From NCBI GenBank assembly GCA_031364845.1, contig JANLWX010000233.1, positions 1 through 14,601 of the forward strand: 14,601 nt of DNA, read 5' to 3'. Below, in pieces: positions 1,482 through 14,598 of this stretch (the first letter of the stretch is position 1; each line of letters opens with the position of its first letter). A program made the position numbers and the translations under genes. This DNA is from Candidatus Eiseniibacteriota bacterium (GTDB lineage: Bacteria > Eisenbacteria > RBG-16-71-46). A model generated the notes under the pieces. It saw only the letters and a list, made by a program, of their open reading frames with translations, was not told the DNA's origin and made no database searches.

Positions 1482-2018
1482 TCAGGAGCGCGCGGTCGGC
1501 GCCGATCCCCCGGCGAGCTCGGCGCGGTATTCGGCGAGCGCACGCGTGTGGGACGTGAAGGCGATCGGGTCCGGCAGGGCATCGAGCGGAAAAAAGTCCG
1601 CCTCGATCGCGTCGTCCCCGGCCGCGAGCGTGCCGCCGGAATGCTCCGCGACATAGAGGATCAGGATCGAGCGCGTGCGCGGGTCATCCTTACCCGCGTA
1701 GATGTTGAACAACCGTGTCAGCCGGCCCTCGATCCCGGTCTCTTCGTACAGCTCCCGCAGCGCGCACTCTTCGGGCGTTTCACCGAACTCCATGAAGCCC
1801 GCGGGCAGGCACCAGGCCCCCGCGCGCGGCTCGAAGCGGCGGCGCACCATGAGCAGCGAGCCCTGCGTCGCGAGGAGCACGCCCGCGGCCGGCACCGGGT
1901 TGCGGTAGTGAATGAAGCCGCATGACGGGCAGGTCGGGCGCAACACGCCGTATTCGGGTTGCGTGGCGAGGAGCGCGCCGCAATGGGGGCAGAAGCGCAC
2001 GGGATCGGTGAGGAGCAT
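1482..2018 (-). CDS. NUDIX hydrolase with N-terminal zinc ribbon (ADP-ribose pyrophosphatase-like)
   Basis: FCPHCG...CPSCG zinc ribbon, YRNP motif, and Nudix box GFMEFGETPEECALRELYEETG (GX5EX7REUXEEXG). Confidence 0.93.
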   Translation of the reverse strand: MLLTDPVRFCPHCGALLATQPEYGVLRPTCPSCGFIHYRNPVPAAGVLLATQGSLLMVRRRFEPRAGAWCLPAGFMEFGETPEECALRELYEETGIEGRLTRLFNIYAGKDDPRTRSILILYVAEHSGGTLAAGDDAIEADFFPLDALPDPIAFTSHTRALAEYRAELAGGSAPTARS

Positions 2019-11964: not shown

Positions 11965-12909
11965 ATGCTCGAAGTTCAGGATGTGACGAAGAGTTACGAC
12001 GGCCGCGCGGTCGTGAACCATCTCTCGTTCGAGATCCGCTCCGGCGAGATCTTCGCGCTGCTCGGACCGAACGGTGCCGGCAAGACCACGCTGATCCGCA
12101 TGATCACCGACATCCTCAAGCCCGACTCGGGCAAGATCACCTTCGATGGAATGCCGATGGGACCGGCGCGGCGGCGTTTGATCGCCTATCTCCCCGAAGA
12201 GCGCGGGCTCTACCGGCGCTCGAAGGTGATCGACGTGCTCGAGTACTGGGGCACGCTCAAGGGACTGTCGGCGGCGAACTCGCGGCGCGAAGGGCACACG
12301 CTGCTGAAGCGCGTCGAGCTCGAGGCGTGGGCGGACAAGCAGGTCCAGGCGCTGTCCAAGGGCATGCAGCAGAAGGTGCAGCTGTGCACGGCCCTGATCG
12401 GCAGCCCGCGCCTCATGATCCTCGACGAGCCGTTCAGCGGCCTCGATCCGGTCAACGTGCAATTGCTGCAGGACATCCTGCACGAGCGACGCGCGGACGG
12501 CGTGACGGTCATGCTCTCGACGCATCAGATGAACAAGGTCGAGGAGCTGTGCGATCGCGCGCTCATGATCTACAACGGACGCATGGTGCTGTATGGACCG
12601 GTCCGCGAGATCCGCCGCCAGCATGCCGACCATGCGATCACGGTGCGCACCCACGGCGATCTTCACGGCGTGCCGGGCGTGCAGTCGGTCGAGACCTTCA
12701 ACGGAGCGCACAAGCTGGTGCTCGAAACGCAGGCAACGCCGACCTCGGTGCTGCGCGCGCTGCTCGATCGCGGCGTCGAGGTGGAATCGTTTGCGCTCGC
12801 GGAGCTGCCGCTCGAGGACGTGTTCGTGAAGGTCGTGCGTGAGGAACTCGGCGTCGACGCCACCGCCGCGCCGCCGCAAGCACTCGCCGCTTCGGGAGGT
12901 GCGCGATGA
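11965..12909 (+). CDS. ABC-2 type transporter ATP-binding protein (YhaQ/NatA-like)
   Basis: Start reassigned to ATG 11965 (MLEVQDVTKSY). Walker A GPNGAGKTT, YLPEERGLY, signature LSKGMQQK, Walker B MILDEPFSGLD, H-loop STH, and a C-terminal PLEDVF motif. Confidence 0.95.
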   Translation: MLEVQDVTKSYDGRAVVNHLSFEIRSGEIFALLGPNGAGKTTLIRMITDILKPDSGKITFDGMPMGPARRRLIAYLPEERGLYRRSKVIDVLEYWGTLKGLSAANSRREGHTLLKRVELEAWADKQVQALSKGMQQKVQLCTALIGSPRLMILDEPFSGLDPVNVQLLQDILHERRADGVTVMLSTHQMNKVEELCDRALMIYNGRMVLYGPVREIRRQHADHAITVRTHGDLHGVPGVQSVETFNGAHKLVLETQATPTSVLRALLDRGVEVESFALAELPLEDVFVKVVREELGVDATAAPPQALAASGGAR

Positions 12910-14189
12910 ACTGGAGCCAGGTGCTGACGATCGCCCGCCGCGAATACAAGACGACCGTGCGCCGCAAGGCGTTCCTGTTCACTGCCATCGGCACGCCGCT
13001 CTACTTCGGCCTCGTGATGTTCATTTCGATCGGCCCCGGCGTGAAGGAACGGCTGTCGACGCTCAAGGAATTCACGTCGCTCGCGGTGGTGGATTCTTCG
13101 GGGCTCTACGCCGATGCGCCGCGCGAAATCCAGACCGATCTCGCGCTCGAAGCCCCGCAGCTCGGCGCGCCGATGCCGTCGCAGATGGTGCGCACGAAGG
13201 TCGAGTTCTATCCGGATCAGCCGTCCGCCGAGAAGGCGCTGCGTGCGGGCACCGTGAGCCAGGTGCTCGTGATTCCCGCCGACTATCTCGACCGCGGCGC
13301 ACTGCGACGCTATGCGCGCACTTCGAACATGTTCTCGAACGCGGACCGCCGTCCGATCGCGACGTGGCTCGTGCAGGGCATGATTGGGCGGCAGCTCGAT
13401 TCGACGCGGACCGCGCGCATCGCCCGCCCGACGCTGGGGCTCGACATGTATTCGATCGATCGCAACGGACAGTTCGAGCTGAAGGACGACAAGCGCGAGG
13501 TCGTCGACTTCATGCTGCCGTTCGCCTTCGCGATGCTGCTGGGCTTGAGCATCACGGTCGGCGGACAGTATCTGCTGCAGGGTGTGTCGGAGGAGAAGGA
13601 ATCGCGGATCCTCGAATCGCTGCTGTGCAACATCACGCCCGAGGAGCTGCTGGGTGGGAAACTGCTCGGCCTCGGCGCGGCCGGCCTCACGCTGGTCGCG
13701 ATCTGGGTCGCGATGGGAATTCCGGCATTCGGCGCCGGCGCGCTGCTCGTGAAGCCGACGCTGCCGGCAGGCATCGCGTTCATCGCGCTCGCCTACTTCA
13801 TGCTCGCCTATCTGTTCTACGGGAGCTTGATGACCGGGATCGGCGCGATGACCAACAACATGCGCGAGGCCCAGCAGTTCGGCGTGTGGTTCTCGTTCAT
13901 GAACTTCGCACCGATGATCGCGATGACCATGATCCTGAGCCGCCCCGGCTCGCCGCTGGCGATCGGGCTGTCGCTGTTCCCGCCGACGGCGGCGACGGCG
14001 ATGATGCTGCGCCTGATGGCTCCGTCGTCCGTGGTCCCGGCATGGCAGGTGGCGGTGTCGCTGGTGCTGCTGCTGGGGGCGGCCTGGTTCGCGCTGCGCT
14101 TCTCCGCCCGGGTGTTCCGGATCGGCCTGCTGATGTACGGGAAAACGCCGAGCCTGCCCGAGATCCTGCGCTGGGTGGGGCAGAAGTAG
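12906..14189 (+). CDS. ABC-2 type transporter permease (YhaP/NatB-like)
   Basis: ATGA overlap with the ATPase gene. N-terminal IARREY plus a TM helix, a large extracytoplasmic loop, VSEEKESRILESLL, GGKLLG, and several C-terminal TM helices. Confidence 0.93.
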   Translation: MNWSQVLTIARREYKTTVRRKAFLFTAIGTPLYFGLVMFISIGPGVKERLSTLKEFTSLAVVDSSGLYADAPREIQTDLALEAPQLGAPMPSQMVRTKVEFYPDQPSAEKALRAGTVSQVLVIPADYLDRGALRRYARTSNMFSNADRRPIATWLVQGMIGRQLDSTRTARIARPTLGLDMYSIDRNGQFELKDDKREVVDFMLPFAFAMLLGLSITVGGQYLLQGVSEEKESRILESLLCNITPEELLGGKLLGLGAAGLTLVAIWVAMGIPAFGAGALLVKPTLPAGIAFIALAYFMLAYLFYGSLMTGIGAMTNNMREAQQFGVWFSFMNFAPMIAMTMILSRPGSPLAIGLSLFPPTAATAMMLRLMAPSSVVPAWQVAVSLVLLLGAAWFALRFSARVFRIGLLMYGKTPSLPEILRWVGQK

Positions 14190-14270
14190 CCTCCAACTTG
14201 CGGATTCCGGTCACGTTGTAACCAGTTGTTGCATTTTGCCGACAGTGTTCTGGCCGACCGGGCCCCGCGA

Positions 14271-14296
14271 GTGGCCACGAGAATTCTCTTGGCAAC
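14271..14296. promoter_or_regulatory. palindromic candidate upstream activator (enhancer-binding protein) site
   Basis: GTGGCCACGAGAATTCTCTTGGCAAC is self-complementary at 22 of 26 positions and is centred ~97 nt upstream of the predicted sigma54 start site. Confidence 0.45.
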
Positions 14297-14311
14297 GGGC
14301 ACCCGATGGCC

Positions 14312-14324
14312 CCACAATTACTTA
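14312..14324 (+). promoter_or_regulatory. IHF-like site
   Basis: CAA-TTAC-TTA matches the CAANNNNTTR core of WATCAANNNNTTR and lies between the palindrome and the -24/-12 box. A second, reverse-oriented match TAA-CCAG-TTG is at 14219-14228. Confidence 0.35.
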
Positions 14325-14353
14325 CAGACATTCTTCATCGTCATGAGCCCCTG

Positions 14354-14369
14354 CGGAACGGGACTTGCG
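14354..14369 (+). promoter_or_regulatory. sigma54 (-24/-12) promoter candidate
   Basis: CGGAACGGGACTTGCG: GG at 14355-14356, TTGC with GC at 14367-14368, exact N10 spacing. Predicted start near 14380. Confidence 0.6.
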
Positions 14370-14379
14370 ATGAGTCTGG

Positions 14380-14598
14380 GAGGCAATCGGTTACGGCCGG
14401 TTCCCAACTACATGAAAGCCTCAAGAGCCCGCCGACGGGCCAGTAAAGACCCGGGTCCGAGAGACCCCTGACCGCCGGTGGTATGGAAGCGCGAGAACAG
14501 GCACAAGCGCCGAGGTTGCCGCTTCCCTCTTGGATCGCGGACGTATCGTCCGCGAAGAAACGGGATCGCCCGGTCCATGGCCGGGCGCTTTCGTTTGT
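14380..14598 (+). ncRNA. candidate sigma54-dependent small RNA or terminated leader, family unknown
   Basis: Bounded by a promoter and a terminator, with at least five hairpins. No ORF with an SD is present. Confidence 0.5.
14567..14598 (+). terminator. intrinsic terminator
   Basis: CGCCCGGTC-CAT-GGCCGGGCG followed by CTTTCGTTTGT. Confidence 0.75.

Follow-up and report, generated by a model that had tools for sequence, protein, structure and literature searches.

A conserved and uncatalogued gene for a non-coding RNA downstream of a sigma54 box in one family of Eisenbacteria

The element described here is a real, uncatalogued, single-copy non-coding RNA gene belonging to one family of Eisenbacteria. 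It was analysed in a window comprising a whole contig of 14,601 nt, where it lies on the plus strand at 14380-14596 (217 nt in its short form) and is followed, on a second contig that overlaps the last 141 nt of the window, by nadE. The RNA has a well-supported three-way-junction fold, predicted from alignments, which covaries and differs from the hairpin model proposed earlier.

Results

A structured RNA without a known family

The original prediction had proposed an undescribed structured non-coding RNA starting near 14380 from a sigma54 box, and we found a conserved gene with no Rfam family and with such a box upstream, positioned for that start (Table 1). Folding of 14380-14596 on the plus strand was better than in all 200 shuffles (z -3.67), in keeping with the strong foldability that had been claimed, while the minus strand of the locus does not stand out (z -1.67, 12/200 shuffles). 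The terminator, expected at 14567-14598, has its core stem at 14567-14587 and extends into a longer hairpin. A 19-codon open reading frame noted within the segment was found at 14412-14471. A small protein gene was rejected as an explanation, a closed ATG-initiated frame of at least 15 codons being present in 19/127 homologs and not conserved.

Comparison with Rfam, suggested as a check of novelty, returned no match at gathering level for the locus and none for eight homolog loci; the best weak match, ar35, scored 26 bits where the cut-off is 45 and was rejected, since it owes its score to the terminator. The original prediction was also right that this is not tmRNA, RNase P, SRP or 6S RNA, each of which matches on another contig of the same genome. 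The RNA resembles these four in being single copy and nearly universal within its family but differs from them in being confined to that one family. In the mostly open-access literature searched on Eisenbacteria noncoding RNA or CsrA and sRNAs, no description of this RNA was found; motif lists such as those of PMC8632094 could bear on its novelty. In the available text of PMC13443453 the phylum comes up solely in connection with predicted CsrA activity.

The second contig places nadE (glutamine-dependent NAD synthetase) on the plus strand 79 nt past the RNA terminator. The contig overlap and the same-strand nadE indicate that the genome holds one copy of the RNA and that no convergent gene follows it; the concern that the hairpins might belong to the 3' end of a minus-strand gene is thereby removed.

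Table 1 Features of the RNA locus, in positions of the window
Feature	Position	Strand	Description
Upstream neighbour, ABC-2 permease	12906..14189	+	Context; not constant across the family
Enhancer-like palindrome, consensus TGGCA-AAT-TGCC	14229..14240	+	Predicted sigma54-activator site; conserved upstream of the RNA in 30 aligned relatives
Sigma70-type promoter	14289..14318	+	-35 TTGGCA, 18 nt, -10 CACAAT; predicted start near 14325
IHF-like core CAA-N4-TTR	14315..14324	+	Overlaps the -10 element
Sigma54 -24/-12 box	14354..14369	+	GG 14355-56, GC 14367-68
P1, 5' hairpin	14382..14405	+	Averaged folds, pairing in alignments
Core domain	14421..14533	+	Three-way junction closed by P2; its arms are P3/P4 and P5
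P2	14421-14427 with 14527-14533	+	Long-range helix; held-out pairing, mutual information
Arm P3	14429..14481	+	One-sided bulge 14444-14452, UAAAG conserved
P4, distal hairpin of P3 arm	14453-14467	+	Model pairing
Arm P5	14485..14526	+	Apical loop 14503-14508, conserved CAAG
P6 hairpin	14535..14555	+	Variable loop
Extended intrinsic-terminator hairpin	14558..14596	+	Unusually invariant in sequence

Distribution of the RNA

Using blastn the RNA was found in 30/36 genomes of the window's family. A covariance model (R1) built from 30 sequences scores the window RNA at 163.9 bits and is positive in 57/59 family genomes (full length in 56, at a contig edge in the other), which together with the covariation described below answers the check for homologs that had been proposed. 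Six of 90 other phylum genomes gave weak R1 matches only (at most 31 bits), none of them convincing, and two Ca. Eisenbacteria records scored 116 and 150 bits. A search of metagenomes with the terminator pattern returned 103 loci, of which 80 were scored and each of these has the RNA in full, one being cut by the contig end; as these copies were found by that pattern the invariance of their terminators is circular and was not counted. In all there are 127 distinct homologs of 206-239 nt. Two genomes (G032, G155) have two full-length copies each on different contigs, reflecting either paralogy or contamination. A loose pattern run on a genome collection gave 120 loci from 3/64 parts, two of them true, so that the distribution outside the phylum has barely been sampled; a single viral match to the RNA was attributed to chance.

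A covarying three-way junction

Because RNAalifold recovered only 20 pairs from the plain alignment, the structure model was taken from single-sequence folds averaged over the alignment. In the 30 training sequences, aligned without fitting to the model, 85% of cells were paired, a value reached by 0/500 shuffles and well above that of slid controls (41-52%), and two-sided changes occurred at 33/67 model pairs. As the structure came from the training sequences themselves we give more weight to held-out sets. When 29 held-out sequences were aligned with no reference to the model, P2 was 94% paired with 28 two-sided changes, followed by P4 (87%), P6 (80%) and P5 (63%, where register errors are likely). 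Model-fitted alignments gave 88% pairing in 29 and 90% in 70 further sequences, and most of the top mutual-information pairs are model pairs, P2 included.

All five hairpins of the original prediction are present where it had placed them. One of them, at 14427-14440, can form but is not part of the conserved fold: it was paired in 63% of cells in the training sequences and 59% in the held-out ones, with no two-sided change in the latter, and loses to the long-range helix P2. Similarly the UNCG loop described for the hairpin at 14385-14402 holds for this genome but relatives mostly carry NNGNGA loops. The anti-Shine-Dalgarno role suggested for CTTCCCTC (14522-14529) is not supported, the stretch lying inside helices P5/P2 and occurring in 20/127 distinct homologs.

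Conservation outside the helices is limited to unpaired stretches of 4-6 nt and the P1-P2 linker is variable. Two purine-rich motifs dominate, GUAAAG in 113/127 and the CAAG loop motif in 117/127 homologs. Near-invariant and at a similar distance from the junction, this bulge and loop could be expected to dock as a pocket in a free-standing ligand-sensing or catalytic RNA; the junction itself has few conserved unpaired bases, however, mutual information revealed no pseudoknot or extra tertiary pairing and there is no Rfam resemblance above noise, making such a function very improbable in our view. The terminator behaves differently from the junction helices, being 95% paired with no two-sided change in 30 sequences.

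Two conserved promoters

Strict dependence on sigma54, as assumed in the original prediction, is not supported, because some 55 nt farther upstream lies a sigma70-type promoter that is equally conserved and outlives the sigma54 box in one genus. One such promoter was found here against 0.1 expected in shuffles, with a -35/-10 spacing of 17-19 nt in 48/58 homolog loci, and a loose GG-N10-GC pattern for the sigma54 box is present in 54/58. The two conserved promoters predict two starts, near 14325 and 14380, the former giving a long form of ~272 nt. In the genus concerned (g20) the sigma70-type promoter is kept in 5/6 loci and the sigma54 box is decaying. Upstream of the RNA in this genus (L242-L246) the decayed sigma54 -12 element is folded together with the RNA's 5' end into an additional hairpin, which suggests that the long form may be the main one there.

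Overlapping the -10 element of the sigma70-type promoter is a CAA-N4-TTR element that resembles the IHF core consensus. In 29/30 loci a looser IHF-like pattern precedes the sigma54 box by 38-46 nt, the TTR half of the core being lost in most of g20. The genome itself encodes rpoN and 21 sigma54 activator domains. Scanning all of it for similar promoters revealed no gene that is clearly co-regulated.

Four studies have RNA libraries with contigs that match the locus at 94-99% identity (14339-14572, 14389-14567, 14415-14571, 14394-14543 and 14421-14598); the first of these ranges starts ahead of the sigma54 start and some extend beyond the terminator. These contigs are strandless and may include DNA, and are a weak hint that the RNA is transcribed. 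The flanking genes are mostly uncovered, a gap that carries no weight as evidence and was set aside because no DNA run spans the locus and because a 230-nt stretch of a coding gene, at 98%, turned up in one of the RNA-library runs as well.

Relationship to nadE

In 51/58 loci nadE follows on the same strand, mostly at 50-120 nt (range 19-805 nt), and in 7/58 there is no nadE downstream, one of these having just 640 nt of sequence. This linkage, the resemblance of a two-armed junction to aptamer architecture and the RNA-library contigs running past the terminator would all suit a terminated leader or riboswitch controlling nadE, the alternative raised by the original prediction, as would the small local hairpin into which the nascent 5' strand of the terminator mostly folds. 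Against it, nadE has a promoter-like site of its own before a near-leaderless start in 46/51 loci (a pattern fitted by eye and without shuffle control), which makes a leader role unlikely. The variable spacing and the loci without nadE point the same way and, as set out below, the corresponding position in a sister family is occupied by a different RNA. The terminator has a formation probability of at least 0.93 in 58/58 loci and no upstream antiterminator common to them was found. We therefore consider control of nadE by this RNA a remote prospect, as the fixed gene link and switchable terminator expected of a riboswitch leader were not found. In L271 and its relatives the site reads TTGCGC-17-CACAAT about 9 nt ahead of the near-leaderless nadE ATG and is found family-wide.

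A different RNA in the sister family and the CsrA context

Known antagonists of CsrA are the Csr sRNAs and FliW. In the sister family f3 the slot before nadE holds a sigma54 box, an RNA of 158-182 nt and a terminator in 7/7 loci with a full nadE start. This RNA carries 4-5 ANGGA motifs against 0.7-1.0 expected in all seven loci, several of them in hairpin loops (CAGGGA/CACGGA), has no Rfam match and is predicted to be a CsrA sponge outside Gammaproteobacteria; one of the seven loci is from an unpublished genome (G038), and the remaining six suffice for the claim. Loci carrying it include L066:3027-3208(-), L067, L068:1294-1455(+), L069, L070 and L081. The enhancer matrix of the window's family gave p <=0.04 at 6/7 of the f3 loci. 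Neither family's RNA model finds the other family, and without detectable sequence homology between the two RNAs the shared slot may reflect replacement. A NUDIX gene at 1482-2018 (-) of the window has a similar gene directly upstream of the f3 RNA in L068 and L069, hinting at old synteny. In f2, among the loci listed, a coding gene abuts nadE, and csrA stands beside fliW.

We found csrA in 56/59 genomes of the window's family and in the window's own genome, FliW in 0/59 (compared with 4/5 f3 genomes) and Hfq in 0/150 genomes of the phylum. The three genomes with the RNA and no csrA match also lack the neighbouring genes of csrA, and we read these absences as assembly gaps and not as evidence of co-loss. 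In all five family genomes read, csrA adjoins a histidine kinase and a sigma54 activator, a neighbourhood shared by one f3 and one f11 genome. In the window's own genome (L262:4137-11861) csrA is followed by a short ORF, a histidine kinase split into two ORFs, a sigma54 activator, a receiver protein, a ParA/MinD-type ATPase, a sigma factor and a GGDEF protein, an order that presumably resembles a flagellar regulatory cascade. At the sigma54 promoter of the csrA cluster, obtained from 19 of 25 loci tried, a conserved upstream element weakly resembles the enhancer of the RNA (p <=0.1 in 9/19). Family f11 has csrA in 30/32 genomes, FliW in 0/32 and no RNA by either model, indicating that the circuit can do without an RNA of this kind; the enhancer-plus-sigma54 pattern had no match in five f11 genomes.

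With csrA present and the slot and promoter type shared with the GGA-loop RNA of f3, the window RNA might be supposed to be a canonical Csr/Rsm sponge. Exposed GGA loops are, in the available text of PMC7652899, the defining trait of CsrA sponges, and here this reading fails on sequence: ANGGA stays at chance level (mean 0.91, shuffles 0.78, range 0-3), is open in 21/127 homologs and has no open copy in 106/127. We therefore regard a canonical sponge as extremely unlikely. No f3-type sponge was found elsewhere in the window's family (best 21 bits with the f3 model), and matches to a triple-GGA pattern in 22 family and eight f11 genomes were rejected as unrelated stretches with no sigma54 box. 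A 2-kb contig (G000:C191) has two tandem arrays near 1009 and 2061, with an 11-13 nt unit with CACGGAGG; these may represent GGA hairpins or have arisen as an artefact of assembly.

Discussion

Among known RNAs the closest parallels lie with GlmY and Pxr, and the Eisenbacteria RNA may work like either but by comparison belongs to neither. As far as covered by the accessible part of PMC4152352, GlmY is a precedent for a sigma54/IHF-driven decoy RNA, in Enterobacteriaceae, and its two promoters share one start. The RNA described here resembles it in size, in having sigma54 and sigma70 promoters with IHF-like and enhancer sites (as sequence elements only) and in the structure-based action proposed for both, but its two promoters predict different 5' ends. 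Membership of the GlmY/GlmZ group was rejected as the sigma54 box, enhancer and IHF site are there but RapZ was not found in the window's own genome (97% complete) and there is no Rfam match.

Pxr of Myxococcus is, according to the accessible portions of PMC5568312, PMC5684412 and PMC11928866, sigma54-driven, active without Hfq and located near a gene annotated as NAD-related. Likenesses extend to an Hfq-less host, an invariant 3' stem and lineage restriction. Pxr is however 108 nt long with three stem-loops and lies beside its own two-component genes, whereas the Eisenbacteria RNA is twice as long, has a junction and no adjacent activator and follows mostly ABC or MFS transporter genes across loci, and on this basis it was not assigned to Pxr. 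That it is nevertheless an Hfq-independent base-pairing sRNA of this kind, perhaps with processing that exposes a seed, would agree with the Pxr precedent and with terminator strands that are invariant and do not covary. We think this rather unlikely given the shortness of the conserved unpaired stretches, the variable P1-P2 linker and the pairing and rarity of the anti-Shine-Dalgarno-like stretch. An Hfq-dependent sRNA was rejected as the phylum genomes lack Hfq.

Comparison with CsrB/CsrC and RsmY/RsmZ is similarly divided. The RNA shares with them a stand-alone nature, a terminator and a csrA-positive, FliW-negative lineage, and its positional counterpart in f3 has GGA hairpin loops; it differs in having no GGA-loop repeats, a long-range junction and a sigma54 box.

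We propose that the RNA acts in trans as a protein-binding decoy, a reading to which we give about even chances. It is preferred because the lineage lacks Hfq, because shape and two purine motifs are conserved and because a sponge-like RNA occupies the slot in the sister family. The RNA is likely transcribed independently from an enhancer-controlled sigma54 promoter, would be turned on by an NtrC-type activator, possibly one encoded beside csrA, and would be supplied in a longer form by the sigma70-type promoter. Its two arms would lie side by side with the UAAAG bulge and CAAG loop forming a binding surface, and the RNA would titrate a regulatory protein, just as the f3 RNA with its GGA loops is predicted to titrate CsrA. 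Context makes CsrA the first candidate partner, but not via canonical GGA loops. Conservation in shape and short internal motifs with no long single strand argues for the decoy; the lack of a GGA excess, the lack of detectable homology to the f3 RNA, the f11 circuit, for which neither model found such an RNA, the weak enhancer match at the csrA-cluster promoter and the absence of RapZ from the window's own genome argue against it. A more specific version, which we consider doubtful, is that Eisenbacteria have a sigma54 feedback circuit built around CsrA in which, in the window's family, a compact junction RNA without exposed GGA loops has replaced the GGA-loop sponge and antagonises CsrA; if true, the Csr sRNAs and FliW would be joined by a third kind of CsrA antagonist.

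To our knowledge few lineages have so far yielded regulatory RNAs driven by sigma54, and the present work adds an uncatalogued family of RNAs with a sigma54 box and a well-supported junction fold. It also presents a natural swap at one promoter slot, which is occupied by a CsrA-sponge-like RNA in one of two sister families and by a differently folded RNA in the other. This bears on how CsrA may be controlled in bacteria that lack both FliW and known sponges, and both RNAs together with their cognate CsrA are accessible in vitro without culturing the organism.
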